NCBI GenBank assembly: GCA_964016885.1
Contig: OZ024740.1
Span: 273,606,001-273,670,000, forward strand
Source: Eledone cirrhosa
Taxonomy: Eukaryota
Direction: 5' to 3'
DNA length: 64,000 nt
Notes under the pieces: model-generated
What the model saw: only the letters and a program-made list of their open reading frames with translations
What the model was told of the DNA's origin: nothing
Database searches by the model: none
Part shown: in pieces, positions 26,120 through 64,000 of the stretch
Position numbering within the stretch: position 1 is the stretch's first letter
How the letters are laid out: each line of letters begins with the position of its first letter
Translations under genes and position numbers: made by a program

Positions 26120-29100
26120 TACATCGGTGTGTAGTTAAAGAACCCCTCTGTCAAAGGAGGTGGTTTTTTTAATTGTATCTCGCGCCCTTGAGTGCTAAAT
26201 TTGCTTTTATTTACAATCATAACCCCAAAATAAAATAAAAACATGGCGGACAAAGAAAATTGTCCACAGGGAGGAGCAGCGAGTTGTTCAGAGGGTGGAA
26301 CAGCCATTTCCACCCAATCACAAGGCAAAGTAGAAAACAAGAGAAACAGCAGCAGTAGCGACAACGACAGTGAAAATGATATCAGCAGCAGCTGTCACTG
26401 GAACTGTAGTAGCAGTAGGGAAAATTATAACGAAAAATTTCGTGCGTTACAGAAATCAAACACCACTACCACCCCCAAATAACAACAATAACAACAGCAA
26501 CAACCACAAAGCACCCAAAGAACAACAACTATAACAGCAGCAACACAAACAAAAACACCGGCGACGGCAACAAAGGCAAAACTAGTGAAGTGTCAACACA
26601 AATCAAAACAAACACATCTTTCGCGAAAGCAACCAACAATTTTGAGCAAATAAACATCACTAACGAAGAGATAAAACAAGCAAAGGTCTTGGTAAAAAAA
26701 CCGGTAAGTCTCACCCGCCCAGCTGAGATAATAAGAAACAAACTTTTGTGTTCGGTCAGTTATCGCACGATCGGATCAAAATCCAGGCGAGTTGAACGGG
26801 CAACGGAGTCACAGGTCCAAAGAGCTATGGGTGCCGTCTGGGCACAGAAAACATATATAGCCCGGGGATCGAGATATGGCACTGTGCATGTGCTCTTCGC
26901 TACACCAGAGGAAGCCAGAGCACACTCCATTGCACCACTCGGCAGCGACGAAATCACAATGATGCCCACATATTGCGGCCAGAGAGTCGTTAGGGTTCGA
27001 TTAGGCCAGGTTCCACCCTCAGTGGAGATGGCGTGGTTGACGGCAGACGTCCTCGCTGACGTTGAAGATTCAACAACCATATTCAACGTCATACGAAAGA
27101 CAGGTAAATAGGACAGGGTCGGGGATGGAGCTAATCATCCAAGCAAACCACGAACGCGTTGAGGCCATCTCCGATGTAATAGATCTGGACGACGGCCCCC
27201 ATCTACCCGTGACTGTCGAAGGTAGGCGCCCAAGGTGTCATGGATGCGGTGACAAGACGCACCCTAAGGCATTCTGCCCCCAAATTACCAAATTACCACG
27301 CCGTGCCCCGCAACTGGAGCAGACAAACAATCAAAGAACACAGTGGCAGAAGAGAAATCACCATCCCCAACAACAAAAACACCATCTCTTGCACCACCCA
27401 CAAAACCAATAGAAAACATACCCCGTCCTGATATAGCCAAATCGGATAAGGGGTGCGATGAGGATGAAGAGTGGAGGACTATTCCAACAAGAAAAGGAAG
27501 AAATCCCTAACCTCACCCCCCCCCCCCCGAAAAAAGAGGAAGAAAGAACCTTAAAAAGAAAGAAAATGAAAACTACCCCACCTCCTTCACCACCATCAAC
27601 AACCACACCCCCACAACCACCTACATAACCACCACCACCGCCACCACCACCACAACCCTTACCATCTACCCATCGTCACCTCCACCAACACGACAGCAAA
27701 CACAGAAAACACCAACACCCAAACAGCAGACACAATACACAGCCATAGACACAGACAACACAAAGCTTTTAAATTACATTCAACACCACACCAACATCAC
27801 AGAAACAAACTACGTACAAGCCACCAAAATTGCCCCCCCACCCCCACACACACACACATAAAAATAATAGAGATTACACAAACAAATTACAACATTAAAA
27901 GAAATATTCCCCACATCAACTGGAGACTACCGAGGGAACATCACCAAAAGAATTTTCACGGATATTCTCGTGGAGAAACCCACCAAGGGTCGGAGGGATG
28001 GATCTCCAACCCCCTTCCTAAAGAAGAGCCACAGGTAATTTTTTTGTACCTCTCCCCTATCATTTGTTTTCCTCCTATCCTAGCCAACATGGCTACTCTC
28101 AGAATAGGTAGCATAAATGTACATGGCCTAGGATCGTCTTGGAAGCAGGGGCACCTGCTGAACGATCTCAGGTCGCTAAATATGGATGTGGTGGCCATCA
28201 GCTAGACCAGAATCTCCGAGGCACGGGCCTTCGCACCGATCTTCGGCGGCTACGATGTGTACGCATCTCCCAGCCGTCCGAGGGAGGAGTTTCTGTGCTT
28301 TTTCGGAGAGGTTTGGATCTCGCCATACGGCCTATCTTCCTGGACCCAGAAGGTAAGTTGGGGATGCTGGATGTGACCAACGGAGACGGCCAAGCTTTCA
28401 GGCTAGTGGCCGTCTATGCCCCGACAGGAGCAGGGCCACCTGATTTCTTCCGGCGTCTGGAGACCTTTCTTGGAACGTCCCGCTCTTTAGTGTTAGTGGG
28501 CGACTGGAACGTGATCTTAGATGCACGTTGGGACTGTGTGGGATTAGCGGATAGGGGTGGAGGGTGCAAGAGCCTCACCAACCTGCTCAGGCGTTTTGAA
28601 TTGTCTGACAGGTACCGATTGGATTTCCCGAATGTGCCAATGTGGAGTCGGACAAATCGCATAGGGTCATCCAGATCATATCTAGATAGAGTATTTTGTA
28701 GGGAAATAGATAGGTGTAGCATAGGCTGTCCACAATTCAAGAGAGTCATTTACACGGACCACAAATTCGTGATCCGTGTGCTTGACTTAGATAGGCTTCA
28801 TAGACGAGGACCCGGCTACTGGAAGCTAAACGCGTCCTTACCAGCGCCCAAGGCCTACAGAGACCGGATTATCAAACTAGTTAAGCGGGCGTTGACGGGG
28901 GCCATCGCCAACAACAAGTGGTGGATTGCTCTGAAAAGAACAATTAGAATAGAGTCCATTAGGTTTAGTAAGGCTTTAGCAATAGAGAAAAATAGAGCAG
29001 AGGGAGAATTAGTTAGACAATTAGACGAGGCGCTTAGCAAAGGCATCGCGACCGACGTACTTGCGGCGAAATTGGCTCTTGACCAATTCTTCAATGCAAA

Positions 29101-31690
29101 GCACGAAAGCTGCGTTGTAAGAGCTAGGGTGCGTGCACTCAGACACGAGGGGACGAAAGCCGTTCAATGGGCCCGAGTGGCGGAGGTGCGTCGTGGCAAC
29201 AAAGCCACGATACGGTCTTTGGTGGACCACGACGGGCGCATGCTACTCTACCCCGGGAAAATGTGTGAAGCTTTTCAGCGACACTTCGCACAGCTGTTCG
29301 GGGGAAGCGGCGGGCCGGATCAAGGGATGGACTTTAGTGTCTACCTCGACGGACTGCCGCGGCTCTCGGCCACTGAGGCAGAGTGTTGCGAAAAGCCGAT
29401 AACAGCCGCTGAAGTACGGGAGGCAATGACTGGCTGCTCAAGGACTAAATCGCCTGGTTTGGATGGTCTGCCTATGAACTTTACGTACATATGCCAGAAC
29501 GGGAGAATTCCCAGTTCTGTGAGCCGATGAGCTGTGGCGCTGCTGAGAAAGGATCCGAACAACGGGGATAACATAGATAATTTCAGGCCCATAACTCTGC
29601 TAAACACAGAGTTCATGATTTTGGCCAAGGTGCTAGCAAAGAGGTTGGCGCTTGTCGTTGGTGGCCATTCAATACAGATCCATCCACGACAACCTCCACC
29701 TCATGCGATACATCGTAGAGAGGTTGGTAGGGAACCTGGCACGAGTGGGTCGTTGATCAATTTAGATCAGTCGAAACCTGTCGATAGGGTCGACCATCGC
29801 TATCTAGCGGCAGTCCTGAGGGCGGCTGGCTTTGGGCCCGTCTTCAGCGGCTGGATCGCTGCCATGCACAGCGACATCTGCTCTGTGGTGAGAGTGAACG
29901 GTCACCTTTCGGAACCGTTCAACATCATGCCCTCGGTCCGCCAAAGATGTCCCCTCTCGTCCCTCTTGTACGTATTGACTATCGAGCCATTATTGCATAA
30001 ACTGGAGACGTTGAGGGGGGTCCCACGCGAACTAGGATGCGGAAGATCCGTGTCAGCATATGCGGACGATGTCAAAGTAGTGGTGTCGAACGCCAAACAC
30101 ATCGAGGCGATCGGCACTACGCTAAGAGAATACGAAGCGGTGACAGGAACAATGATCAAACAGGAAAAGTCAGTGGGCCTGCAGCTCGGCACCTGGAGAG
30201 GCAGGTCCATGCCGTACAACAGCGTTGTCGGGCGCTAGACGGACGGACCGGTTAAATTGCTAGGGGTCTGGTTCGTTTCGGACCTCCATACGGACAAAAA
30301 CTGGGACGAGGTGACGAGCAGGGTGGCTTCTCTCACCCAGAAATGGGCGGAGAGGAAGCTATCCCTGAAAGGTCGAGCGGAGGTGGCTAACGCGTATATC
30401 GCGTCCGTTATCTACTACCGTCTGACCGTTGTACCTTGTCCTAAGCGCCGCCTGACTGCGCTGGAGCGTTTGCTCTTTCGGTTTTTGTGGAAGGGAAGCG
30501 CTCCGATGGTCAGGCGGTCCATCTGCTGTCAACACCCGCTACGTGGAGGGCTGGGCATGCCGTGGATGATGATGCGCAGACACGCGCTCAGGCTACGACA
30601 TCTCCACCTCTTCCGCGACGGTGATCAGGTGTGGTCGCCGTTTGCTAGACACGTCTTTCCCCAGCTCGTCTCCTTGACGGAGCTGCAGTCCTGGGTCAAG
30701 CGAAGACCGAGAGGGAGCGCTTGGAGACTGGAATGTCTTCAGGCGCTCACCGCCCTCGACCAATCGGGCAATGTGATCGGTGGAAACTCCACCTTGGCGT
30801 TCTATAGAGGAGTAGTGGAGGGGAAGAGCGACGACGTACTTGGAGAAACTCTAGGCGTCGACGAAAATCAACTAGCCAATCTCTTCTGAAGGACTTTCGG
30901 GCCGGGGCCTATGGACAACTTCCAGAAATCCCTGGCCTGGCAGTGCTACCGAGGAGTTTGCCAGTTCGGGATAAATTCTACAGACATGGAGGTGCCCTCA
31001 GCCAGGAATGTCCGAGATGCGCTCAGGGCGACGAAACCGTCCTGCACGCACTCGTCCAGTGTCCGACATTGCTGACTTGTGGGTTTATGTCGAACATCTG
31101 CTGTCACGTGTAGGAGGGATCCAGCTATCAGCTGAGTCCATCGTGAGGATTTCCCCGCCCACTTCTTTTAGCCGGGAAGGGAAGGCAGTTTTTATCTGTC
31201 TGGTGGCCATGGCGAAAGAGATAGTATGGTGGACACGTTTGAAAGGGCCGAAGACGAGCACTTACCTCTTCTGTGATGCCCTGATTAACCTTATCAAATT
31301 TCATTTGAAAAGGAAAATCAGGGTAGTGAGGGAAGTGCTCTCTTACCAGAATTTTGTTGAAAGAGGGGTGAGAGAAGCAATTATGGCCCGTGTGAATTGG
31401 CCTACTCTGAGTATCTCTCTGTAAATTAAAGGTGGAAAACTGGGAGAGGGCACTTGCCCTGGTGGTCAGGATAACTGTGGCCTTTTAATGGGCTTTCTCC
31501 ACAAATGTCCCTCGGAAGTCTCCCCCCTATTGGGGAATTTTTTGTTATTTTTTATTACATCCTCTGTTTTTTTTACACGCAGAAATGCCCATTTGTACCG
31601 TCCTGTATTGTCCTGTACTGTCCTTAATGTCTACTTTATGTAAACCCTTGTGGTTAATAAAGAAAGCATTATTAATATTATTATTATTTT
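26120..31690 (+). mobile_element. Near full-length Tx1/L1-clade LINE, ORF1 (from 26243) and ORF2 (28089-31424), both disrupted
   Basis: ORF1 has CCHC knuckle CHGCGDKTHPKAFC and a Pro/Thr-rich tail. ORF2 has MATLRIGSINVHGL, GDWN, TDH, SAYADD. Ends AATAAA + (ATT)n. Confidence 0.95.
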
Positions 31691-43615: not shown

Positions 43616-43707
<92 letters not shown>

Positions 43708-43744
43708 TATATATATATATATTTACACACACACACACATGAAA

Positions 43745-44279
43745 TACGTGAAGTTGTATATCTGGTAACATACGGTATGTTTATAAATAAACATTTTGAA
43801 AGCCTTCCATTATGAATTTGAAAACTGACAGCATAGCGCTATCTTTTGTATTCCAACAGAAGCTAAGTACTGGCAACCAGTGATGATGACGTCATCATTT
43901 CTGACTTTAGTCGTTATCAAACTGGTACTGCCGACCACTTATTGTTGGAACATAATATAAGATAAAATATAGTTTAGAAGCCTATTTACATTTGCTGATC
44001 AAGCACATTGGCATATAGAGTTACGGCTGGCTCAGCCGGAGATAAAATGGGGGCATATAGCATATATATTATGTTCCAATAATAAGTGGTCGGCAGTACC
44101 AGTTACATAACGACTAAAATCAGATATCATGACGTCATCATCGCTGGTTGTCCGTACTTACCTACAGTTGGAACATGCTAGATGGCGTTATGCTGTCAGT
44201 TTTCAAATTCATAGCTGAAGGTTTTCAAGATGTTTATTTGTAAACATACCGTATGTTACCAGATATACAACTTCATATA
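43745..44279. mobile_element. ~535 bp foldback/MITE-like element with ~215 bp inverted arms
   Basis: TGAAGTTGTATATCTGGTAACATACGGTATGTTTA ... TAAACATACCGTATGTTACCAGATATACAACTTCA; ~105 bp spacer. Confidence 0.85.
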
Positions 44280-44302
44280 CAAAGCTATGTTAGAGTTAAT
44301 GC

Positions 44303-44340
<38 letters not shown>

Positions 44341-44348
<8 letters not shown>

Positions 44349-45158
44349 TAAAATAACAGATTAAAGTTTAAGCAAAGAATCGCTGCTTTCACCCTTAACG
44401 GGATCTTCTGAAACTAACAAAGTCAATCTGTAAACGCAGAACTGGATATTTCAAAAAACGTTGCAACCGGAGGAAGACAGGAAGACGATACTTTGGTTCA
44501 TGGTGACGTTCGCTGGCAAAGAACGGGAAAAAACGAATAATATGTCATTAATAGGAGCGGTGAAAAACAATTACGCGCAAAGACAAAACCACATTTATGG
44601 TATAAAAGAGGTCGTAGACTAATGTTCTCTTAGGTGGTGCATAGAGACGTTCTCTGGCAATGAACGAAAAAACGAAGATAATAAGTCATATGTGGAGCGT
44701 GGAGAACAATAGCACGCAAAGACAAAACCACGTAAATGGTATAGCAGAAGTCGTAGACTAAAATTCTAACTAGGAGACCGAATGAATCTCCGCTACAGAG
44801 TTAAGAACAAAGTAAATAAATACAATACAGAAGTAATAGGAACAAATAAATACATACACGCAAACAGATACGTACATACACAAGCATACGCAAAACCTTA
44901 CCATAGGTATACAAAACCACGCACATCGTCTTCCTGTCTTCCTCCGGTTGCAACGTTTTTTGAAATATCCAGTTCTGCGTTTACAGATTGACTTTGTTAG
45001 TTTCAGAAGATCCCGTTAAGGGTGAAAGCAGCTATTCTTTGCTTAAACTTTAATCTGTTATTTTAATAAATATTTGCTCTTCGGTTCTTATATATTTGAT
45101 ATATATTTTCCTTATCGAGCCCTCTCTGGATTTTAGTCTTCAATTTTATTATTATTAC

Positions 45159-48715: not shown

Positions 48716-48950
48716 GAACACTGGAAGGTAATATCCGTAGTGGTAGAGCACTCAGTCCATGGAAGGAGTTAGGTAGAAGTGGTTACACAACAGTTAGTTC
48801 ACCATCCCGAGTACAATTGTTTCACCTTAGCGGATCCTGAGCTCGTAATGGGCATGGTTATACGGAACATGCCCATTACGAGCTGAGGATCCGCTAAGGT
48901 GAAACAATTGTTCTTGGTATGGTGAACTAACTGTTGTGTAACCACTTCTA
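48710..48950. mobile_element. 240 bp foldback element with a hammerhead in each arm
   Basis: Arms 48774-48856 and 48868-48950; one-sided tail 48710-48773; embedded in (TA)n. Confidence 0.88.
48873..48922 (+). ncRNA. Minimal type I hammerhead (mirror copy at 48802-48851 on minus)
   Basis: CCATTACGAG-CTGAGGA-TCC-GCTAA-GGT-GAAA-CAATTG-TT-CTTGGTATGG; the mirror copy has CTCAGGA and TA-CTCGGGATGG. Confidence 0.75.
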
Positions 48951-48971
48951 TATATATATATATATTTATAT

Positions 48972-49937
48972 ATAAAATATTAAACAAATAATGAACAAAC
49001 AATTCCTTATATTAAACAAAAAAAGTTCACTATTTAACGATCGTTTCTAGGGCATATATGTGTTATAATTGGTATGCATATTTAACAGATCTATGTACAA
49101 AATTATACAAAATTATACAAATTATCAAGATTAAATATACATACCTAACTCATATATACGCCGTCTTCAGAAATAATGAAGTATATTTATTGATAATAAC
49201 AACAATTCAAAATATCAGTTCAAAATTGACCAATGAAAACACAAAGGGTTAAAAGCAGTTTGGTGTGTGTATATACATGCAAAAACCTTACACATATTTT
49301 ACAATAATGTGTGTATAATTTGTATGTGTATACTAAAAAGATGGATGTAAACACAAAATTTCAAGGTTAATATCTCTGTAAGCTTAATGCGCTGATAAGA
49401 TACGCAAAGATACTTATGGAGTCAAGCATATAAATATATTTTTTTCATACACACACATATCAGTATAATCACACATACATGTGCGTATATGCATAAATAT
49501 ACACATAACCACGAACATACAAACACACACACTCCCCCACTCACATTTATATATGTGGATATAAAATCATAAGCAAATAGAAATTAAGTCACTCACATAA
49601 AAACACTGGTACACACATTTCAAGATCAAGATACAGAAATTAGGTGGGAGGGGGGGGAGGGGTCAGTATTTGATTGTCAGACCAGACAGCCTAAAATAAA
49701 TGTATCTATAAATTAAGAAAAATAAAAAAATAAAAACAATAAAATATAATAAATGTACATACACATACAGATATACATACACATACATACATGTACGCGC
49801 ACATAGAGATATCTACACATACATACATACACACATACCTATACTGTCATACACACACATACATTTACACGAACATACACATACACATATAAAAAGATAT
49901 AAATACACACACACTCACGCGCAACACATATACACAT

Positions 49938-49976
<39 letters not shown>

Positions 49977-49997
49977 TATACACACACACATAGACTC

Positions 49998-50031
<34 letters not shown>

Positions 50032-50496
50032 ATACAAACATATATATCCCCACACTCATACCACCATAAATATACATACAAACACCCACATGTATATATA
50101 TATATATATATATATATATCCACATACACACACGTACACATATATATATATACATACACATATATACACATACATATATATATATACACACACATAAAAA
50201 ACAGACATGCACATATATATATATATATATATACATATTTCATTACTCTTATATATACACATAGTATATATACATACACAACCTCACTTATACACATATA
50301 CACATAAGTTATATTACAATAATAATAAAGAATAATATATATATATATATATACATATATACACACATATACATATATACATATACATATATATATACAC
50401 ACACATACATACACATACATACATACACCTAAACATATACATACATAAATACACACATACGAATAAAGACATATATTCACACATAGACACCTATAT

Positions 50497-50532
<36 letters not shown>

Positions 50533-52330
50533 ATATATATACACATACATACATATATATATATACATATATATATACATATACACACACACACACACAC
50601 ACAGACACACATACACACTCACATATACATATATATATATATGTGTATGTGAGTGTGCGCAAATACATATATATATACACACACACATACAAACACACAC
50701 AAACACATACATATGCATATATGCACACACACACACATATATCACATAGATACGAAGATAAACATATAAATAGAGAGACATACGAATATATACAGAACCC
50801 ATATACACATACATACAACCACGCATATACATATACATACATATATACACATATATATATTCCTATATACAAGCATACACATACATACACATATATACAT
50901 ATACATACACATATACATACCACACATTCACATACACATACATATATAATACATATATATACATATATATACATACATATGTATGTACAATCATATATAC
51001 ACACTCAATCTTACATTCATATTTACATGCTCATATATGTATTTTTATATTTAGAAATAAATACCAAAACCTATATAGACACCCACCTACACATATATTC
51101 ATACATATACTCTTACAAAAACAGATGATAATAGTATGGGGGAAAGGGGGGGTTTGGAGAAGGGGATCAAAGTAAATATATGTTTCAAGAAACATATAAT
51201 ATTTTCCGTATCTTAATTCAATGTATGTTCTTACATATTTTCAGTGCTAGGAAATACGAAATCTATGCATCCCAAAATAAAAAAGTATACCATTAATCAT
51301 ATGTTAACTAAACCAAAGATAGTCAACATATTGATTTCCAAGGTGTAAATTAGTTAGGTTTATAATATTTGAAGCAAAATTATGAAGTCAAACAGTAGTA
51401 GATTATTAATTACATTATAACTAAATTAAAGTTAATAACGTTATGGTATCAATATTAGGAGATGAATTTAGTAATAGGGAAAAGAAACCCAAATAAAAAT
51501 AAAATAAAGTATTACATCGGTAGTAGCATATAAATTATATGTTAACTAAATTAAAGATTATATATTTATTTCAATAGTATACGTTAATTAGTATATGTTA
51601 ATTAGGTATACAATACATAAAGCAGATATTGTATTTCATCAATAGCATAATATAATTATATGCAAATAAAAATCAAAATTAATACGCATACATATACATA
51701 TACATACACATACACATATATATACATATACACACATATATATATATATATACATATATATACACATACATAGATATATAGTCACATAAATATACATACA
51801 GATACACATACAATACACACATATACATATACATATAGATATACATATCTTTTTCAAAAAATTGCACAGAATATATTAACTAGGTATATATCCAAAACAC
51901 ATCCCATTCTATGATTACATGACATTCTGCAATTCGTCTGTACAAGGATACTAATTTTAAGCAAATTAAAATTAAAGTTTTAGGTTGATTAAAACTAAAA
52001 CCAAATAATAAATATATTTCCAAAATGTATATTAATTAGGTCTATAATACTAAAAATTCTTTCTCCGTCATAGGATACATGATATTATTTTGTTATATTT
52101 TATCTGTAAAAGAATTATAATAAAAAAAAAAAAAAAAAAATTATAATAAAAGGTTAAAATAAATTAAAATTAATCTATAAATTAAATTACTGAGTATATA
52201 TTAGTAATATTTAAAGGTTTTTCAAAATTTATGATTACATAATATTTTCTCATCTGTAATAAAATATTAATTAAATTAAATTTATAGGTTAACTAACATT
52301 TAAATTAAATTAAATTCTAGAATAATGTTA
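48972..52330 (-). repeat. Pseudo-LTR copy 1 (~3.36 kb)
   Basis: Near-identical to 54653-57951 and 60685-64000. Confidence 0.92.
49026..49180 (-). ncRNA. Type I hammerhead ribozyme with 116-nt stem II
   Basis: TTCATTATTT-CTGAAGA-[stem II]-GAAA-CGATCG-TT-AAATAGTGAA; 10-bp stem I; predicted cleavage between 49036 and 49035. Confidence 0.82.
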
Positions 52331-54655
52331 TTAATTAGGTTTATAATATTTAAATGTTTTTTTTAGTTTATGATTACACGATATAATTAATTCCTGTCTT
52401 TTATTTAATAAGATATCCCTAGACTTCATTATTTCAAATAGTTCTTGGGAACATAATCTACATTCCTTTCTATTATTTTGATAAGGGGTGGCTCTTTTGA
52501 GCACACTCCAGGTCAAATCATATTTTATATTTTTATTTTTATAACTATTGATTTTTTCTGCTAGAGATGTTGTATTAGCCAGTGCGGCATTTTTAAAGCT
52601 ATGTTTGTGGGTATTATACCTTGTCTTAAAATTGTTAGAGGTAGCTCCTATATATGAGCAAATAGAATCTTTAGTTTTAACATTACATTTATAGACTATG
52701 TTGTTAATAAGACAATTCCCTTTTAATGGGCAGTTTGTTTTGTTTCTACAGTTACATCCTTTCGTTAATTCTGTATTTGAGGAGATATTATTGTTAATTT
52801 GATGTACTGGTGGTATACTTATGGTTTTCTTACATTTATATGCATTATATGCACTTATATTTTGTTTTATGTTATTTGTTGTAGAGTATGAGAATTTAAC
52901 TGTAGACCTATTTAAGATTTGATGGTATTTGTGGTTTGGCGGGAAGTTTTTTTCAAGGATATAAAAAAATTTTTTAGCAATATTATCCTTAACTTGTAAA
53001 TTAAAAGGAGCATTATACCAAGTAACTCGTCTATTACGGTTTCTATGTTGTTTATTATTTTTATTATTTTTATATGTTGTATCATGATTTTTACTAGGAG
53101 GATTAATGTTAATGATCTCATCACAACTATTTTTAGTTATATTTGTAGATTTAGGTGTTTTATCTTTTTTATTAGGAGTTTTATTATTAATATTTATTAT
53201 AGTCGTATGATGAGTAGTTTTTTGAGGGTTACCATACTTTATATTAGAAGATTTAGTATTTTGGGGTATACTGTGGGTGGCATTTAGGTGTGTACTTTTC
53301 ATTTGGTGTTTGTTGGTAATATTATGCTGTATGCTTTCAGTATTTTTAGTAGAAGGTATATACTCTAATCTATTTTTGTGGCCACTTCTATCTAGAGCTT
53401 CATTATAAAAGGTCGCATTTTTATCAAATACATCTTGGTTAGAAGAAAGGTTAGAAATTCTAAGTGATATATTATATGCAAGGTTTTTAAGGATAGATTT
53501 AGGGTGATTAGATTGTGAGTGTATGTAATGTAAGTTTTGGTTAGGTTTATGGTAAGGTTGGTATATACCCGTAGCTAAATCTAAAGTTATATCTAGGAAA
53601 TTTACTACTTTACTTGTTTTTTCAAAAGTAATATTAAGATTATAATAGTCTTTAAGGAAAGTTCTAATATGCTTTTTGTTTTTTTCGATTTCTGAAAGGC
53701 TAAGGTTGTTAGAAAGAAGAAGACAGTCATCACGATATAAACCACCTTTGAGGTGGGGAAAAGAGGCATTTATGTTGAAAAGGAGAAAGAGGCCCACAAG
53801 ATCAGTAATTTGGGCGGAATCGCTTGAACCCATAGTAATATCAAAAAGATTACTGTAAGTGTTTCTGGTCCAGTACTCATTCTGAAATTCAATAAGTGTT
53901 TGTCTAGCATGTGTAATAATGTTAATGTCATCCGAAGTTAAATTAGATCTATTTTTAGCAAATATTAATGCTTTGTTCAGGAGTATGGGTGATATAGAAG
54001 AATAGTAATTATCTATATCAAATTGTAGGAAAGAAGCAGAAGATTTACACCTAATATTTTTAAACCAATTAATTACCTGGGAGGTGTTTTCCCAGAGTGG
54101 TAAAATAACGTATTTTCTTATTTGTGGGATGACTCTATCTAAAATTTTTTTGCTAATTATTCCAATATCTGATTTGGAGGGACATATAAGTCTAATAGAA
54201 GGATTAGAGTTAAAGTTAGATTTGTGATCTTTCAGGTTGAAGTGTGGACTTTTCAATGCCAAAGGTTCAGTTCTATCTTCAATATTTAGTTTTTTTACTA
54301 TGTTGTGTGTTTTGTTGTTGATGTTGGTGAGTGACACATTATTAGATTTTTTATAATTTTTTCTGAGTTCTTTATATATGAACTCATTATAATGTTCAAT
54401 ATCCATATGATACAAGTTACCAGTTTTGTCCGAGTGGACATGGATTTTTTTAGACTTTTTTAGGTCCAATAGGGTAGAATCAAGGTCCTTTTGAAAGACG
54501 GATTTATACTTTTTAAATTTGAGGTGTTTAATTAAATTAAAAAGGTCTTTCTCGAAGTCTTCAAGTAAAAAGTTGTGTGGTGGATTCTTGTAAGTGTTGA
54601 AATCATACATATATTTCCGATCTGCTTGTTTAGATTTTCTATCGAAGTGGTAGGC
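52331..54655 (-). CDS. PLE RT/GIY-YIG polyprotein, open but missing ~40 N-terminal residues
   Basis: FDIDNYYSSI, FDITMGSSDSAQ, GLYRDD, FLDITL, SNHP, WYNAPF, CNCRNKTNCPLKGNC, IVY...YIG, CRLC. Confidence 0.93.
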   Translation of the reverse strand, partial: AYHFDRKSKQADRKYMYDFNTYKNPPHNFLLEDFEKDLFNLIKHLKFKKYKSVFQKDLDSTLLDLKKSKKIHVHSDKTGNLYHMDIEHYNEFIYKELRKNYKKSNNVSLTNINNKTHNIVKKLNIEDRTEPLALKSPHFNLKDHKSNFNSNPSIRLICPSKSDIGIISKKILDRVIPQIRKYVILPLWENTSQVINWFKNIRCKSSASFLQFDIDNYYSSISPILLNKALIFAKNRSNLTSDDINIITHARQTLIEFQNEYWTRNTYSNLFDITMGSSDSAQITDLVGLFLLFNINASFPHLKGGLYRDDCLLLSNNLSLSEIEKNKKHIRTFLKDYYNLNITFEKTSKVVNFLDITLDLATGIYQPYHKPNQNLHYIHSQSNHPKSILKNLAYNISLRISNLSSNQDVFDKNATFYNEALDRSGHKNRLEYIPSTKNTESIQHNITNKHQMKSTHLNATHSIPQNTKSSNIKYGNPQKTTHHTTIININNKTPNKKDKTPKSTNITKNSCDEIININPPSKNHDTTYKNNKNNKQHRNRNRRVTWYNAPFNLQVKDNIAKKFFYILEKNFPPNHKYHQILNRSTVKFSYSTTNNIKQNISAYNAYKCKKTISIPPVHQINNNISSNTELTKGCNCRNKTNCPLKGNCLINNIVYKCNVKTKDSICSYIGATSNNFKTRYNTHKHSFKNAALANTTSLAEKINSYKNKNIKYDLTWSVLKRATPYQNNRKECRLCSQELFEIMKSRDILLNKRQELIISCNHKLKKTFKYYKPN

Positions 54656-55545
54656 ATATATGTGTTATAATTGGTATGCATATTTAACAGATCTATGTAC
54701 AAAATTATACAAAATTATACAAATTATCAAGATTAAATATACATACCTAACTCATATATACGCCGTCTTCAGAAATAATGAAGTATATTTATTGATAATA
54801 ACAACAATTCAAAATATCAGTTCAAAATTGACCAATGAAAACACAAAGGGTTAAAAGCAGTTTGGTGTGTGTATATACATGCAAAAACCTTACACATATT
54901 TTACAATAATGTGTGTATAATTTGTATGTGTATACTAAAAAGATGGATGTAAACACAAAATTTCAAGGTTAATATCTCTGTAAGCTTAATGCGCTGATAA
55001 GATACGCAAAGATACTTATGGAGTCAAGCATATAAATATATTTTTTTCATACACACACATATCAGTATAATCACACATACATGTGCGTATATGCATAAAT
55101 ATACACATAACCACGAACATACAAACACACACACTCCCCCACTCACATTTATATATGTGGATATAAAATCATAAGCAAATAGAAATTAAGTCACTCACAT
55201 AAAAACACTGGTACACACATTTCAAGATCAAGATACAGAAATTAGGTGGGAGGGGGGGGGGGGGGAGGGGTCAGTATTAGATTGTCAGACCAGACAGCCT
55301 AAAATAAATGTATCTATAAATTAAGAAAAATAAAAAAATAAAAACAATAAAATATAATAAATGTACATACACATACAGATATACATACACATACATACAT
55401 GTACGCGCACATAGAGATATCTACACATACATACATACACACATACCTATACTGTCATACACACACATACATTTACACGAACATACACATACACATATAA
55501 AAAGATATAAATACACACACACTCACGCGCAACACATATACACAT

Positions 55546-55584
<39 letters not shown>

Positions 55585-55605
55585 TATACACACACACATA
55601 GACTC

Positions 55606-55639
<34 letters not shown>

Positions 55640-56104
55640 ATACAAACATATATATCCCCACACTCATACCACCATAAATATACATACAAACACCCACATG
55701 TATATATATATATATATATATATATATCCACATACACACACGTACACATATATATATATACATACACATATATACACATACATATATATATATACACACA
55801 CATAAAAAACAGACATGCACATATATATATATATATATATACATATTTCATTACTCTTATATATACACATAGTATATATACATACACAACCTCACTTATA
55901 CACATATACACATAAGTTATATTACAATAATAATAAAGAATAATATATATATATATATATACATATATACACACATATACATATATACATATACATATAT
56001 ATATACACACACATACATACACATACATACATACACCTAAACATATACATACATAAATACACACATACGAATAAAGACATATATTCACACATAGACACCT
56101 ATAT

Positions 56105-56138
<34 letters not shown>

Positions 56139-57727
56139 CTATATATATACACATACATACATATATATATATACATATATATATACATATACACACACAC
56201 ACACACACACAGACACACATACACACTCACATATACATATATATATATATGTGTATGTGAGTGTGCGCAAATACATATATATATACACACACACATACAA
56301 ACACACACAAACACATACATATGCATATATGCACACACACACACATATATCACATAGATACGAAGATAAACATATAAATAGAGAGACATACGAATATATA
56401 CAGAACCCATATACACATACATACAACCACGCATATACATATACATACATATATACACATATATATATTCATATATACAAGCATACACATACATACACAT
56501 ATATACATATACATACACATATACATACCACACATTCACATACACATACATATATAATACATATATATACATATATATACATACATATGTATGTACAATC
56601 ATATATACACACTCAATCTTACATTCATATTTACATGCTCATATATGTATTTTTATATTTAGAAATAAATACCAAAACCTATATAGACACCCACCTACAC
56701 ATATATTCATACATATACTCTTACAAAAACAGATGATAATAGTATGGGGGAAAGGGGGGGTTTGGAGAAGGGGATCAAAGTAAATATATGTTTCAAGAAA
56801 CATATAATATTTTCCGTATCTTAATTCAATGTATGTTCTTACATATTTTCAGTGCTAGGAAATACGAAATCTATGCATCCCAAAATAAAAAAGTATACCA
56901 TTAATCATATGTTAACTAAACCAAAGATAGTCAACATATTGATTTCCAAGGTGTAAATTAGTTAGGTTTATAATATTTGAAGCAAAATTATGAAGTCAAA
57001 CAGTAGTAGATTATTAATTACATTATAACTAAATTAAAGTTAATAACGTTATGGTATCAATATTAGGAGATGAATTTAGTAATAGGGAAAAGAAACCCAA
57101 ATAAAAATAAAATAAAGTATTACATCGGTAGTAGAATATAAATTATATGTTAACTAAATTAAAGATTATATATTTATTTCAATAGTATACGTTAATTAGT
57201 ATATGTTAATTAGGTATACAATACATAAAGCAGATATTGTATTTCATCAATAGCATAATATAATTATATGCAAATAAAAATCAAAATTAATACGCATACA
57301 TATACATATACATACACATACACATATATATACATATACACACATATATATATATATATACATATATATACACATACATAGATATATAGTCACATAAATA
57401 TACATACAGATACACATACAATACACACATATACATATACATATAGATATACATATCTTTTTCAAAAAATTGCACAGAATATATTAACTAGGTATATATC
57501 CAAAACACATCCCATTCTATGATTACATGACATTCTGCAATTCGTCTGTACAAGGATACTAATTTTAAGCAAATTAAAATTAAAGTTTTAGGTTGATTAA
57601 AACTAAAACCAAATAATAAATATATTTCCAAAATGTATATTAATTAGGTCTATAATACTAAAAATTCTTTCTCCGTCATAGGATACATGATATTATTTTG
57701 TTATATTTTATCTGTAAAAGAATTATA

Positions 57728-57763
<36 letters not shown>

Positions 57764-57951
57764 ATAATAAAAGGTTAAAATAAATTAAAATTAATCTATA
57801 AATTAAATTACTGAGTATATATTAGTAATATTTAAAGGTTTTTCAAAATTTATGATTACATAATATTTTCTCATCTGTAATAAAATATTAATTAAATTAA
57901 ATTTATAGGTTAACTAACATTTAAATTAAATTAAATTCTAGAATAATGTTA
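54653..57951 (-). repeat. Pseudo-LTR copy 2, lacking its 3' end and the 3' half of the hammerhead
   Basis: Junction GAAGTGGTAGGC|ATATATGTG joins ORF sequence directly to stem II. Confidence 0.9.
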
Positions 57952-60393
57952 TTAATTAGGTTTATAATATTTAAATGTTTTTTTTAGTTTATGATTACAC
58001 GATATAATTAATTCCTGTCTTTTATTTAATAAGATATCCCTAGACTTCATTATTTCAAATAGTTCTTGGGAACATAATCTACATTCCTTTCTATTATTTT
58101 GATAAGGGGTGGCTCTTTTGAGCACACTCCAGGTCAAATCATATTTTATATTTTTATTTTTATAACTATTGATTTTTTCTGCTAGAGATGTTGTATTAGC
58201 CAGTGCGGCATTTTTAAAGCTATGTTTGTGGGTATTATACCTTGTCTTAAAATTGTTAGAGGTAGCTCCTATATATGAGCAAATAGAATCTTTAGTTTAA
58301 ACATTACATTTATAGACTATGTTGTTAATAAGACAATTCCCTTTTAATGGGCAGTTTGTTTTGTTTCTACAGTTACATCCTTTCGTTAATTCTGTATTTG
58401 AGGAGATATTATTGTTAATTTGATGTACTGGTGGTATACTTATGGTTTTCTTACATTTATATGCATTATATGCACTTATATTTTGTTTTATGTTATTTGT
58501 TGTAGAGTATGAGAATTTAACTGTAGACCTATTTAAGATTTGATGGTATTTGTGGTTTGGCGGGAAGTTTTTTTCAAGGATATAAAAAAATTTTTTAGCA
58601 ATATTATCCTTAACTTGTAAATTAAAAGGAGCATTATACCAAGTAACTCGTCTATTACGGTTTCTATGTTGTTTATTATTTTTATTATTTTTATATGTTG
58701 TATCATGATTTTTACTAGGAGGATTAATGTTAATGATCTCATCACAACTATTTTTAGTTATATTTGTAGATTTAGGTGTTTTATCTTTTTTATTAGGAGT
58801 TTTATTATTAATATTTATTATAGTCGTATGATGAGTAGTTTTTTGAGGGTTACCATACTTTATATTAGAAGATTTAGTATTTTGGGGTATACTGTGGGTG
58901 GCATTTAGGTGTGTACTTTTCATTTGGTGTTTGTTGGTAATATTATGCTGTATGCTTTCAGTATTTTTAGTAGAAGGTATATACTCTAATCTATTTTTGT
59001 GGCCACTTCTATCTAGAGCTTCATTATAAAAGGTCGCATTTTTATCAAATACATCTTGGTTAGAAGAAAGGTTAGAAATTCTAAGTGATATATTATATGC
59101 AAGGTTTTTAAGGATAGATTTAGGGTGATTAGATTGTGAGTGTATGTAATGTAAGTTTTGGTTAGGTTTATGGTAAGGTTGGTATATACCCGTAGCTAAA
59201 TCTAAAGTTATATCTAGGAAATTTACTACTTTACTTGTTTTTTCAAAAGTAATATTAAGATTATAATAGTCTTTAAGGAAAGTTCTAATATGCTTTTTGT
59301 TTTTTTCGATTTCTGAAAGGCTAAGGTTGTTAGAAAGAAGAAGACAGTCATCACGATATAAACCACCTTTGAGGTGGGGAAAAGAGGCATTTATGTTGAA
59401 AAGGAGAAAGAGGCCCACAAGATCAGTAATTTGGGCGGAATCGCTTGAACCCATAGTAATATCAAAAAGATTACTGTAAGTGTTTCTGGTCCAGTACTCA
59501 TTCTGAAATTCAATAAGTGTTTGTCTAGCATGTGTAATAATGTTAATGTCATCCGAAGTTAAATTAGATCTATTTTTAGCAAATATTAATGCTTTGTTCA
59601 GGAGTATGGGTGATATAGAAGAATAGTAATTATCTATATCAAATTGTAGGAAAGAAGCAGAAGATTTACACCTAATATTTTTAAACCAATTAATTACCTG
59701 GGAGGTGTTTTCCCAGAGTGGTAAAATAACGTATTTTCTTATTTGTGGGATGACTCTATCTAAAATTTTTTTGCTAATTATTCCAATATCTGATTTGGAG
59801 GGACATATAAGTCTAATAGAAGGATTAGAGTTAAAGTTAGATTTGTGATCTTTCAGGTTGAAGTGTGGACTTTTCAATGCCAAAGGTTCAGTTCTATCTT
59901 CAATATTTAGTTTTTTTACTATGTTGTGTGTTTTGTTGTTGATGTTGGTGAGTGACACATTATTAGATTTTTTATAATTTTTTCTGAGTTCTTTATATAT
60001 GAACTCATTATAATGTTCAATATCCATATGATACAAGTTACCAGTTTTGTCCGAGTGGACATGGATTTTTTTAGACTTTTTTAGGTCCAATAGGGTAGAA
60101 TCAAGGTCCTTTTGAAAGACGGATTTATACTTTTTAAATTTGAGGTGTTTAATTAAATTAAAAAGGTCTTTCTCGAAGTCTTCAAGTAAAAAGTTGTGTG
60201 GTGGATTCTTGTAAGTGTTGAAATCATACATATATTTCCGATCTGCTTGTTTAGATTTTCTATCGAAGTGGTAGGCTCTCCATCTAACCCTTCTGATAAA
60301 ATTATTAGTTTTCTGAATCATAAGGAGTAAGAAGTCGTCCTTAGAAGGTATTGGTATGTTTTTTAAGGAGGTTCCTAAATATTGTTTTTCCAT
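57952..60393 (-). pseudogene. Full-length PLE ORF (~813 codons) with one nonsense codon
   Basis: Starts MEKQYLGTSLKNIPIPSK...FIRRVRWRAYHF. AAA>TAA at 58297-58299 falls inside the GIY-YIG motif; the frame continues to 57952. Confidence 0.9.
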
Positions 60394-60684
60394 TGTGATA
60401 TGGATGATGGACAATTGAAAGAGCTCAACTAAATGTATATGGGTTTACAAAATCATACATATATATATATGTTTATACATAAATATAAAATTAATACACA
60501 CATACAGTACAAAAATACGAATATTTCCGTGAAAATAGGAGCAAAATTATGTAGATAAATCTACCAAGAGTTTACGGTAGTGTCCAATCCGTATGAAGAA
60601 CTCAATGTATTCCGGATATCATGGAAAGAAGAGATGTAATGAAAATCCACTTTCGGTGAAAGATAAACGGTATACAGAGTCAAG

Positions 60685-61650
60685 ATAAAATATTAAACAA
60701 ATAATGAACAAACAATTCCTTATATTAAACAAAAAAAGTTCACTATTTAACGATCGTTTCTAGGGCATATATGTGTTATAATTGGTATGCATATTTAACA
60801 GATCTATGTACAAAATTATACAAAATTATACAAATTATCAAGATTAAATATACATACCTAACTCATATATACGCCGTCTTCAGAAATAATGAAGTATATT
60901 TATTGATAATAACAACAATTCAAAATATCAGTTCAAAATTGACCAATGAAAACACAAAGGGTTAAAAGCAGTTTGGTGTGTGTATATACATGCAAAAACC
61001 TTACACATATTTTACAATAATGTGTGTATAATTTGTATGTGTATACTAAAAAGATGGATGTAAACACAAAATTTCAAGGTTAATATCTCTGTAAGCTTAA
61101 TGCGCTGATAAGATACGCAAAGATACTTATGGAGTCAAGCATATAAATATATTTTTTTCATACACACACATATCAGTATAATCACACATACATGTGCGTA
61201 TATGCATAAATATACACATAACCACGAACATACAAACACACACACTCCCCCACTCACATTTATATATGTGGATATAAAATCATAAGCAAATAGAAATTAA
61301 GTCACTCACATAAAAACACTGGTACACACATTTCAAGATCAAGATACAGAAATTAGGTGGGAGGGGGGGGAGGGGTCAGTATTAGATTGTCAGACCAGAC
61401 AGCCTAAAATAAATGTATCTATAAATTAAGAAAAATAAAAAAATAAAAACAATAAAATATAATAAATGTACATACACATACAGATATACATACACATACA
61501 TACATGTACGCGCACATAGAGATATCTACACATACATACATACACACATACCTATACTGTCATACACACACATACATTTACACGAACATACACATACACA
61601 TATAAAAAGATATAAATACACACACACTCACGCGCAACACATATACACAT

Positions 61651-61689
<39 letters not shown>

Positions 61690-61710
61690 TATACACACAC
61701 ACATAGACTC

Positions 61711-61744
<34 letters not shown>

Positions 61745-61802
61745 ATACAAACATATATATCCCCACACTCATACCACCATAAATATACATACAAACACCC
61801 AC

Positions 61803-61838
<36 letters not shown>

Positions 61839-62213
61839 ACATACACACACGTACACATATATATATATACATACACATATATACACATACATATATATAT
61901 ATACACACACATAAAAAACAGACATGCACATATATATATATATATATATACATATTTCATTACTCTTATATATACACATAGTATATATACATACACAACC
62001 TCACTTATACACATATACACATAAGTTATATTACAATAATAATAAAGAATAATATATATATATATATATACATATATACACACATATACATATATACATA
62101 TACATATATATATACACACACATACATACACATACATACATACACCTAAACATATACATACATAAATACACACATACGAATAAAGACATATATTCACACA
62201 TAGACACCTATAT

Positions 62214-62249
<36 letters not shown>

Positions 62250-63837
62250 ATATATATACACATACATACATATATATATATACATATATATATACATATA
62301 CACACACACACACACACACAGACACACATACACACTCACATATACATATATATATATATGTGTATGTGAGTGTGCGCAAATACATATATATATACACACA
62401 CACATACAAACACACACAAACACATACATATGCATATATGCACACACACACACATATATCACATAGATACGAAGATAAACATATAAATAGAGAGACATAC
62501 GAATATATACAGAACCCATATACACATACATACAACCACGCATATACATATACATACATATATACACATATATATATTCATATATACAAGCATACACATA
62601 CATACACATATATACATATACATACACATATACATACCACACATTCACATACACATACATATATAATACATATATATACATATATATACATACATATGTA
62701 TGTACAATCATATATACACACTCAATCTTACATTCATATTTACATGCTCATATATGTATTTTTATATTTAGAAATAAATACCAAAACCTATATAGACACC
62801 CACCTACACATATATTCATACATATACTCTTACAAAAACAGATGATAATAGTATGGGGGAAAGGGGGGGGTTTGGAGAAGGGGATCAAAGTAAATATATG
62901 TTTCAAGAAACATATAATATTTTCCGTATCTTAATTCAATGTATGTTCTTACATATTTTCAGTGCTAGGAAATACGAAATCTATGCATCCCAAAATAAAA
63001 AAGTATACCATTAATCATATGTTAACTAAACCAAAGATAGTCAACATATTGATTTCCAAGGTGTAAATTAGTTAGGTTTATAATATTTGAAGCAAAATTA
63101 TGAAGTCAAACAGTAGTAGATTATTAATTACATTATAACTAAATTAAAGTTAATAACGTTATGGTATCAATATTAGGAGATGAATTTAGTAATAGGGAAA
63201 AGAAACCCAAATAAAAATAAAATAAAGTATTACATCGGTAGTAGCATATAAATTATATGTTAACTAAATTAAAGATTATATATTTATTTCAATAGTATAC
63301 GTTAATTAGTATATGTTAATTAGGTATACAATACATAAAGCAGATATTGTATTTCATCAATAGCATAATATAATTATATGCAAATAAAAATCAAAATTAA
63401 TACGCATACATATACATATACATACACATACACATATATATACATATACACACATATATATATATATATACATATATATACACATACATAGATATATAGT
63501 CACATAAATATACATACAGATACACATACAATACACACATATACATATACATATAGATATACATATCTTTTTCAAAAAATTGCACAGAATATATTAACTA
63601 GGTATATATCCAAAACACATCCCATTCTATGATTACATGACATTCTGCAATTCGTCTGTACAAGGATACTAATTTTAAGCAAATTAAAATTAAAGTTTTA
63701 GGTTGATTAAAACTAAAACCAAATAATAAATATATTTCCAAAATGTATATTAATTAGGTCTATAATACTAAAAATTCTTTCTCCGTCATAGGATACATGA
63801 TATTATTTTGTTATATTTTATCTGTAAAAGAATTATA

Positions 63838-63874
<37 letters not shown>

Positions 63875-64000
63875 ATAATAAAAGGTTAAAATAAATTAAA
63901 ATTAATCTATAAATTAAATTACTGAGTATATATTAGTAATATTTAAAGGTTTTTCAAAATTTATGATTACATAATATTTTCTCATCTGTAATAAAATATT
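60685..64000 (-). repeat. Pseudo-LTR copy 3 (cut by the window edge)
   Basis: Near-identical to copy 1. Confidence 0.92.
60739..60893 (-). ncRNA. Second intact long-stem-II hammerhead, ~350 nt upstream of the ORF start
   Basis: Identical to 49026-49180. Confidence 0.82.

Follow-up and report, generated by a model that had tools for sequence, protein, structure and literature searches.

The long head-to-tail arrays of a Penelope-like element (PLE) in Eledone cirrhosa behave as copies of a template without ends, and a circle made by the element's own hammerhead-like ribozyme is the best reading of that template, one to which we give even weight. The tandem array in the window, i.e. the whole 64,000-nucleotide stretch of DNA analysed, would then be the long arm of a head-to-head insertion for which reverse transcription was primed at unit positions +64 and +201 (counted from the predicted hammerhead cut) of one unspliced RNA, probably a unit-length circle; we judge this account, too, to be about evenly poised. 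Internal initiation (PMC11167929) and a circle model for PLE tandems (PMC4209133) are already published. What is new here is a contrast between first and later passes in genomic stops at -142, of which no published report was found in the literature searched, a search with most subscription journals outside its coverage.

Results

A two-armed insertion in a TA microsatellite

The window array consists of three head-to-tail PLE units (U1 to U3) on the minus strand, running from 48972 to beyond 64000 with a period of 6.09-6.11 kb. The units are nearly identical, as the earlier note had claimed, and differ by a few SNPs and indels. The counts of SNPs and indels are 5 and 2 (the latter in homopolymers) for U1 and U2 over 5.6 kb, 2 and 3 for U1 and U3 over 3.3 kb, and 2 and 4 for U2 and U3 over 3.2 kb. 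The long arm reaches unit +1096 just outside the window (window-equivalent 65764), and beyond the window lies a short inverted arm, from -12 to +201, that ends in (TA)n at ~65974. The insertion therefore comprises two head-to-head arms in (TA)n, the left of 2.8 units, and the array first described is only half of it; the second start site and the inverted arm had been overlooked. The features of the locus are as follows.

48949..48971, no strand: (TA)n target microsatellite at the left insertion end, from sequence; nearly all sampled ends have a (TA)n flank
48972..49035, minus: outermost stretch of the long arm, covering unit positions +64 to +1, with the first of the two fixed end sites, a putative reverse transcription start site
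49026..49180, minus: hammerhead-like motif, copy 1, predicted cut 49036/49035, from the fold
49181..52330, minus: U1 3' UTR, ~3.1 kb, abundant TA/CA microsatellite-like sequence
52331..54655, minus: U1 ORF remnant, reverse transcriptase and C-terminal endonuclease region in an open frame, N-terminus absent (DKT, GLYRDD, CxCx5C, YIG, CxxC, CxH)
54653..54655, minus: non-seamless U1/U2 junction, unit +473 to -16, with GGC microhomology, from sequence
54653..54782, minus: hammerhead-like motif, copy 2, broken at the junction and lacking the GAAA and the cut site, from sequence
57952..60390, minus: U2 ORF from its ATG (RWR, DKT, GLYRDD, CxCx5C), nonsense codon at 58297-58299
60548..60685, minus: 137-nt 'tail' between +201 (60548) and +64 (60685), read through in the window array, from end-site mapping
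60699..60748, minus: hairpin predicted between +1..+11 and +40..+50, a would-be competitor of hammerhead stem I, a prediction only
60739..60893, minus: third copy of the hammerhead-like motif, located at the seamless U3/U2 junction, predicted cut 60749/60748, from the fold
60749..64000, minus: 3' part of U3, running past the window to unit +1096, from flanking sequence
60852..60890, minus: putative RNA 5' end at unit -142 (60890; TC-A-TT), a stop hot spot, and GTATGT at -109 (60857-60852)

All three units are damaged: the 5' region and first codons are missing from U1, the U2 frame is broken by the nonsense change at 58299 and U3 is 5'-truncated. The seamless joining of pseudo-LTR to the next 5' UTR that had been reported holds at the U3/U2 junction and fails at the U1/U2 junction, where 487 nt are skipped and a template switch is likely. 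The sequence of this odd junction occurs once in the whole genome.

It is very improbable that the window array is an assembly artefact of a single unit. No bridging read or contig was seen at the locus, and in contigs of four sequencing runs none of the matches listed bridges the U1/U2 junction, although the runs may come from other individuals and contigs inform on presence only; contigs of runs X1, X4 and X6 do carry loose ends with (TA)n at 60548. Against an artefact, private variants distinguish every unit, the odd junction has no second copy in the genome, both outer ends obey the family rule set out below, and a dozen other loci carry arms of 2-4 units, the longest ~4 units. Nor is the array end a chance match, since a 33-nt piece of it has 1199 exact genome copies and its reversed control has 0.

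A Hydra-type element with a long 3' UTR

A single frame encodes DKT, GLYRDD and a C-terminal YIG region, by motif a PLE-type reverse transcriptase followed by a GIY-YIG-like endonuclease, and the protein has 52 relatives at 31-49% identity. In the U2 frame RWR lies at residue 36 and DKT at 114, matching the RWK-like motif and the DKG to DKT change of the Hydra clade; the CxCX5C linker reads CNCRNKTNC, the endonuclease CxxC is CRLC and its CxH is CNH, and no CCHH motif is present in the endonuclease as judged by eye from the translation. Pfam and PDB sequence searches with the protein gave no significant match, so the call as an endonuclease-bearing (EN+) PLE leans on the motifs of PMC8557442, and the element is assigned to the Hydra-type Penelope-like retrotransposons by these motifs rather than by a tree against reference PLEs.

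The Hydra clade as described by Craig et al. (2021, PMC8557442) shares with it a single ORF with reverse transcriptase then endonuclease, the RWK-like, DKT, CxCx5C, CxxC and CxH motifs, a hammerhead (here a hammerhead-like motif) at the repeat, (TA)n targets, and tandem arrays that are partial, have an inverted copy beside them and carry a tail at one end. The Eledone element shows all three of these last features, a trait of EN+ PLEs, and (TA)n is found at the flanks of mapped ends. The differences lie in length, tail and hammerhead. Members of the Hydra clade are generally <3 kb, in that source a tendency rather than a defining trait, whereas the Eledone unit is 6054-6908 nt (6.1-6.9 kb) with a 3.1-kb 3' UTR that constitutes the excess; the tail is 30-40 in the clade and 137 nt here, and in the Eledone hammerhead-like motif stem II is 112 nt long and a UA is inserted ahead of G12. 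The unit is likewise unlike the small non-coding unit of retrozymes, being 6 kb with an RT-EN ORF. The family is young, in keeping with the very recent activity suggested for it earlier, and an open frame of at least 800 aa is kept in 24 of 35 sampled ATG-bearing copies.

Insertions end at two fixed sites, probable internal start sites

The earlier note had placed the genomic end ~64 nt beyond the predicted cleavage site and had raised internal priming; position 48972 is exactly +64, and sampled arms of the family end at two fixed internal sites, the putative start sites, so that the ends of insertions are non-random with respect to the hammerhead. Among ends with the '+64' anchor, 57 of 64 stop exactly at +64. 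Every paired insertion among the first 100 listed matches has one +64 end and one +201 end (42/42), a count beside which 22 further ends had no partner recognised or in available sequence. The same pairing is found in 48 of 49 insertions of a wider set, the exception being a diverged relative, and in five of five further fully covered arrays. Two ends of a diverged relative, at C1:273316674 and 308012357, were dropped before counting, as were ends lacking a TA-like flank in the set of the first 100 matches and in the census of passes described below. This pattern fits published internal initiation and the PLE 'tail'.

In PAc, the Poseidon PLE of Anolis, Frangieh et al. (2024, PMC11167929) described two internal start sites with both strands extended; as here, the sites lie downstream of the hammerhead and set the tail, the target is AT-rich, uncut RNA serves as template and a dimer is predicted. 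The PAc sites lie in the ORF and show no strand preference, and array growth is outside the scope of that work, whereas the Eledone sites lie 137 nt apart in the 5' UTR with one end of each kind per insertion.

In some insertions neither arm includes the other's sequence; at C1:5399814, for example, the arms run from +64 to -607 and from +106 to +201. Fold-back synthesis of the inverted arm cannot make such insertions and was rejected for them. Penelope of Drosophila virilis and elements of Adineta vaga (PMC2377424; PMC3846280) likewise have a head-to-head inverted repeat, a palindromic junction and an optional tail. Self-priming on an antisense template was described for such palindromes in PMC3846280; here two primers on sense RNA are favoured because some arms do not include each other's sequence.

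Stops at -142 are confined to first passes

When an arm traverses the region upstream of the hammerhead for the first time, it stops at -146..-134 in 28 of 81 cases, whereas later passes stop there in none of 74 (Fisher p = 9e-10). The census sampled 90 of 301 read-through matches, ten of the first 100 being left out, and later-pass breaks at ~-175 to -183 and -240 to -383, mostly subfamily divergence, were counted as past -146. The corresponding later-pass count among the closest copies is 0/48. Few first passes end at the cut itself (2 of 93 within 8 nt of it) and about a third cross it uncut to -142. Genome-wide, matches fall from 3104 inside to 1699 across -142, with search patterns of unequal length, and an exact -142/-142 arm junction is found at 158 loci, where shared descent is a possible source of identity. 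The two inverted arms of an insertion are alike at -142 (8 stop/stop, 15 pass/pass, 2 mixed, p = 7e-5), and in both mixed pairs the alignment runs on into the partner arm, as far as -153. Read-through runs in the first 100 matches comprise 75 single, 8 double and 3 triple, with no cliff at one unit.

Because stops occur on first passes only, and few at the cut, short insertions are likely to have been copied from uncut linear RNA and long arrays from an end-less template. The unit-length RNA released by hammerhead-to-hammerhead cleavage that was first proposed does not survive as the general or main template in linear form, given 2/93 first passes ending at the cut. A structural stall at -142 was also rejected, as the same sequence stops 0/74 later passes, and a single self-copying short palindrome is unlikely to be the only source of the stops, since arm junctions vary (-142/-142, -140/-140, -142/-131, +61/-142 and -142/+164).

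Judged solely from these DNA ends, -142 is likely to be the RNA 5' end. Among the data sets listed as carrying the sequence none was of RNA, which does not bear on expression. TC-A-TT at -142 is presumably initiator-like and GTATGT at -109 we take to be splice-donor-like. A G that could derive from a cap precedes -142 in 5 of 14 arms, several of them ambiguous, and is a hint only. A DPE-like AGTTA at +28 from -142 was dropped, its A being present in just 6 of 37 variants. A spliced template finds no support: neither a splice joint nor a -142 stop occurs in any of 41 ATG-anchored copies (of 319 matches; 11 picked for lacking a read-through match), the intron itself being predicted. A transcript start inside the pseudo-LTR with a splice donor close by, and an intron kept in genomic copies, are described for Penelope and the Adineta elements (PMC2377424; PMC3846280) and would have their putative counterparts here.

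A non-canonical hammerhead-like motif

The predicted cuts belong to a type I hammerhead-like fold (CUGAAGA ... GAAAC-GAUC-GUU, followed by the cut), of which copy 3 has a 112-nt stem II, a palindromic 2-bp stem III and the extra UA before G12. The core is non-canonical, with the UA between C11.1 and G12 or, alternatively, a C-A mismatch at the base of stem II. Across 37 aligned variants the core boxes are preserved along with the three helices, which hold in 99.5% of cells, and the one covarying pair (G-C/G-U/A-U) lends weak support, the variants being 95% identical and related. An Rfam scan gave no hammerhead among the best 150 of 190 matches, only microsatellite-driven microRNA noise. The downstream hairpin is predicted to sequester hammerhead stem I, with a pairing probability of 0.92-1.0 in all six folds holding both strands. 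The cut site is crossed without a scar, with 1154 exact matches across it and 1199 just past it.

These properties bear on copying that would be circular in effect without ligation, from a linear, terminally redundant transcript running from -142 to the same region one unit later. On reaching the RNA 5' end, cDNA would transfer by homology to the 3' copy in retroviral style, or jump end to end at the cut, and short insertions would stem from RNAs without the 3' copy. We regard this as unlikely but as a serious competitor. It predicts seamless junctions, a single haplotype and, if transfer is ~100% efficient, no later-pass stops; it accounts for switches between sister RNAs such as that at U1/U2; and breaks within 16 nt of the cut show a weak post hoc excess (7/95, 6/81). 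An active ribozyme would be unnecessary, which fits the odd core, the competing hairpin and the result of PMC11167929 for the only PLE tested in vitro, where ribozyme mutations were reported to leave insertion unaffected and RNA reads with an end at the cut were absent. However, transfer would have to succeed in every one of the 74 later passes when ~35% of first passes run off, its acceptor would already be paired with the arm's own cDNA on later rounds, and no excess of scars was seen at the cut or at -142 in long arms.

Variation within and between insertions

Units and arms within one insertion differ by 0.4-0.7 per kb, whereas the nearest other insertion is typically 2-7 per kb away and the median is near 8 per kb. 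Nearly all differences within insertions are singletons (33 of 38 variable sites, with 4 two-copy and 1 shared). Copies exceed unit length, with no fixed 5' stop and with one haplotype per insertion, and the exceptions are three shared derived variants: two alleles common to U2 and U3 and absent from U1, and one at C2:36.29 Mb common to units of opposite arms. The three need a second template, a multimer or later conversion and do not fit one monomer circle; the window array in particular, with U2 and U3 sharing two variants that U1 lacks, is more than three readings of one monomer circle. Of the earlier proposal that template jumping or rolling on a circle made the array in one event, single-event copying of an end-less template is supported by the behaviour of long arrays.

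Such sharing would fit long arms that were copied directly from multimeric read-through transcripts of tandem donors, or arrays that grew later as DNA through unequal crossing-over or conversion. Divergence is slightly higher within an arm (0.68/kb) than across arms (0.42/kb), which also speaks for this alternative, and PMC11167929 assumes an mRNA of several copies. We nevertheless consider it improbable. Linear multimers from -142 with up to ~4 units should stop in at least a quarter of later passes, and 0/74 do; the model has no means of regenerating array length; and DNA-level duplication predicts nested shared variants rather than a predominance of singletons.

Discussion

The data are drawn together, with a confidence somewhat short of even, in a model in which an autonomous animal retrotransposon of 6-7 kb uses two RNA forms of one transcript: uncut linear RNA gives short promoter-ribozyme insertions and a covalent circle together with a reverse transcriptase dimer gives rolling, multi-unit arrays that rebuild the pseudo-LTR. 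Transcription would start at ~-142, just ahead of the hammerhead. The short back-to-back insertions, which are abundant and have arms running off at -142, would derive from RNAs left uncut there. Transcripts with two hammerheads would be cut at both, probably as a dimer, and joined into a circle. Both ends of a cut in (TA)n would prime reverse transcription, at +64 and +201, the enzyme would go round one to four times, crossing the circle joint and leaving no scar, before falling off, and the two cDNA ends would be joined over a few bases of microhomology. In the window array the first 5.7 kb (U1) would likely come from one RNA and U2-U3 from a sister RNA reached by a microhomology switch. DNA sequence is silent on the covalent circle itself, in that a circle joint and a tandem junction are the same sequence.

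Cervera and de la Pena (2014, PMC4209133) proposed a circle for PLE tandems, and retrozyme monomers are circularised by RtcB (PMC7229834). With these systems (PMC4209133; PMC7229834; bioRxiv 10.64898/2026.07.22.740005) the Eledone element shares a minimal type I hammerhead-like motif in which helix III is palindromic and A9 and G10.1 are separated by a nucleotide, head-to-tail copies at one-unit spacing, and the proposed sequence of cutting, ligation and more-than-unit reverse transcription. In these sources circles are demonstrated for non-coding retrozymes of 170-400 nt and the PLE circle is a proposal, whereas the Eledone unit is a 6-kb coding element; support here comes from the contrast between first and later passes in genomic ends. 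Compared with PAc (PMC11167929), the long Eledone arms behave unlike copies of linear RNA.

How PLEs rebuild the pseudo-LTR, and what the hammerhead does, are stated as open in PMC2377424 and PMC8557442. The contrast between passes is incompatible with a plain linear template of one unit for the long arrays. As a simple genomic discriminator, a fixed stop that appears on first passes and is absent from later ones can be used on any PLE-rich long-read assembly. Furthermore, exact positions are named for bench work, i.e. the 5' end at -142, the predicted cut and the start sites +64 and +201. If the circle is real, it would link coding PLEs to the RNA cycles of retrozymes and viroid-like agents, and if the reading with two RNA forms is true, these insertion ends would amount to a first footprint, at population scale, of a circular intermediate in the transposition of a coding PLE.

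Structure of the insertion

Self-comparison of the window array, a Hydra-type Penelope-like element (PLE), reveals three minus-strand units (U1, left and outer, U2 and U3) of 99.4-99.6% identity, with a handful of SNPs and repeat-length changes between them, confirming the near-identical tandem units claimed in the earlier note; none of the three is intact. Unit numbering takes the predicted hammerhead cut as its origin: +1 is the base just past it (window 60748, minus strand) and -1 the base preceding it. The left end of the array, at 48972, adjoins (TA)n and is unit +64, so the claimed end ~64 nt beyond the cut also stands. The array had further been described as seamless, which is true of the U3/U2 junction and not of U2/U1, where -16 is joined to +473 over GGC, an arrangement found once genome-wide. 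Past the window edge (the window is G000:C1:273,606,001-273,670,000 in the assembly), U3 runs to +1096 and meets an inverted arm over GAAA; this arm spans -12 to +201 and terminates in (TA)n, and the whole insertion is ~17 kb. Other repeats in the window are:

48774-48950, near-perfect 177-bp hairpin element immediately to the left of the (TA)n target
43673-44348, degenerate inverted repeat of ~680 bp, 76% self-identity
5602-6205 and 44307-44926, a 600-bp repeat present as two inverted copies, 88% identity
16232-18661, 22425-25816 and 28084-31437, three copies of an old 2-3.4-kb repeat, 70-73% identical

The 177-bp hairpin may be a miniature inverted-repeat element. Elsewhere, ~345 bp of unrelated sequence (G000:C1:230813287-230813632) breaks a long arm, which continues beyond it in register (unit 5027 to 5020); this is probably a later insertion.

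The ORF frame carries RWR, DKT, GLYRDD, CxCx5C, YIG, CxxC and CxH motifs, which fit those described for the Hydra clade in passages of PMC8557442. Pfam and PDB searches gave no significant match, and 52 relatives were recovered, with similar motifs in all six inspected.

In the predicted ribozyme, a hammerhead-like fold with GUU as its cut triplet, stem I measures 10 bp, stem II 112 nt and stem III 2 bp, the last capped by a palindromic loop; the core is non-canonical, with an extra UA ahead of G12. Across 37 variants, helix pairing is kept in 99.5% of cells, a single pair covaries (G-C/G-U/A-U) and the lone CUGANGA-box change is at N7, support that is weak because the variants are 95% identical and related. 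A competing pairing of +1..+11 with +40..+50 is predicted to replace stem I.

Outer ends

The genome contains 1199 exact copies of a 33-nt piece taken immediately after the cut and 1154 of a piece spanning it. In DNA surrounding the first 100 listed matches, outer ends lie in (TA)n at either +64 or +201, bearing out the claim that ends are non-random relative to the hammerhead. Every paired insertion in this positional sample (42/42) has one +64 and one +201 end, as do 48/49 with selected loci included, the sole exception being a diverged relative, and 5/5 additional arrays. The +201 end is also present in contigs of three other sequencing runs (X1, X4, X6) and a head-to-head joint at -142 in one contig of X6. 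That the window array is an assembly artefact is very improbable. Close relatives of the element end (window 60277-61300) occur in runs X5 and X6, labelled organisms B and C.

Passages of PMC8557442 and PMC3846280 give the known tail-at-one-end PLE layout, which is the layout seen here. Furthermore, the paired ends agree with the scheme presented in part of PMC11167929, in which synthesis begins at two internal sites and both strands are extended. Since some arms (element runs in a single orientation) lack each other's sequence, each would have had its own priming event. The minimal two-armed form of the family is a 70-bp insertion 9 kb beyond the array (G000:C1:273681239-273681311), in which the +201 arm measures 41 nt and the +64 arm 24-30 nt.

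Inner ends depend on the pass

Each time an arm crosses the ribozyme region, going the way reverse transcription proceeds, one pass is counted. Among first passes, 28/81 at-risk arms end between -146 and -134, with 14 at -142 precisely, and 158 loci contain an exact -142/-142 junction. The earlier note had proposed a unit-length RNA released by hammerhead cleavage; as a linear template this is not supported as a general source: only 2/93 first passes end within 8 nt of the cut, and the RNAs behind the short insertions had escaped ribozyme cleavage. Later passes were taken from +201 read-through at 301 exact sites, of which 90 were examined; in contrast to first passes, 0/74 stop at -146..-134 (p = 9e-10). 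Read-through extends well into the ORF in 29/30 arms checked, stops at -142 number 0/48 among the closest copies, and neither a -142 stop nor a spliced form occurs in ATG-anchored copies (0/41).

A structural stall at -142 would recur at every pass and was rejected; from these sequence comparisons, -142 is best read as a true RNA 5' end, at which transcription would start. Its TC-A-TT context resembles an initiator. Donor-like GTATGT lies downstream at -109, much as Penelope has a splice donor after its transcript start, according to passages of PMC2377424. A short insertion (G000:C1:162182627-162183419) contains an additional inner piece running from +13 to -136, in which the ribozyme region was copied again, and similar local re-copies occur at C1:99158198 and C1:334573070.

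Templates and haplotypes

The two arms of an insertion share a stop/pass class (p = 7e-5), which points to a single RNA templating each insertion, on which two primers would act. Read-through run lengths (75, 8, 3 among the first 100 matches) decay smoothly, to a maximum of four units. A linear one-unit RNA from -142 is excluded, since it predicts a stop at the second -142 in every full-length arm, and not one arm stopped there. Linear multimers with four units or fewer should halt at least a quarter of later passes at -142, which is at odds with the same 0/74. The lack of later-pass -142 stops and the smooth decay suggest that long arms were copied from a template with no 5' end in their path.

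Each insertion carries a single haplotype. Divergence within one insertion is 0.68 per kb in the same arm and 0.42 per kb across arms, below the 2-7 differences per kb typical of the nearest other insertion, which argues for one donor lineage per insertion. Among 38 variable sites in 13 arrays other than the window array, 33 are singletons, four occur in just two copies and one is shared. One (TA)n tract, at G000:C2:170444813-170454476, contains two or three adjacent insertions of the family that differ in haplotype.

Two derived alleles are common to U2 and U3 and absent from U1 and all other sampled copies, and at C2:36.29 Mb one allele is common to opposite arms; these shared alleles disfavour a single monomer circle. 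The window allele split falls at the non-seamless U2/U1 junction and is compatible with template switching between sister RNAs, and also with later duplication or conversion. Multimeric donors of recent origin may be compatible with the SNP data taken alone; multimers or DNA-level growth are an improbable account of the arrays. The best locus to separate multimer from monomer templates is G000:C2:36290964-36329723, where each arm of a 39-kb insertion comprises nearly three units.

For the end-less template, a ribozyme-cut, ligated circle is proposed, with about an even chance of being correct. A circle was suggested for PLE tandems in part of PMC4209133, and passages of PMC7229834 show circularisation for small retrozymes. 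In vitro insertion by PAc, the Poseidon PLE of Anolis, is unaffected by ribozyme mutants in the relevant part of PMC11167929, which counts against a circle. Strand transfer or exact end-to-end jumping, which would have to pass -142 without the stops that linear RNA predicts, is the less likely explanation.

Both ideas of the earlier note are already published; for the first-pass/later-pass contrast and the strict one-of-each end count, a literature search found no published report. The element itself is a previously undescribed long PLE, belonging to a known kind.
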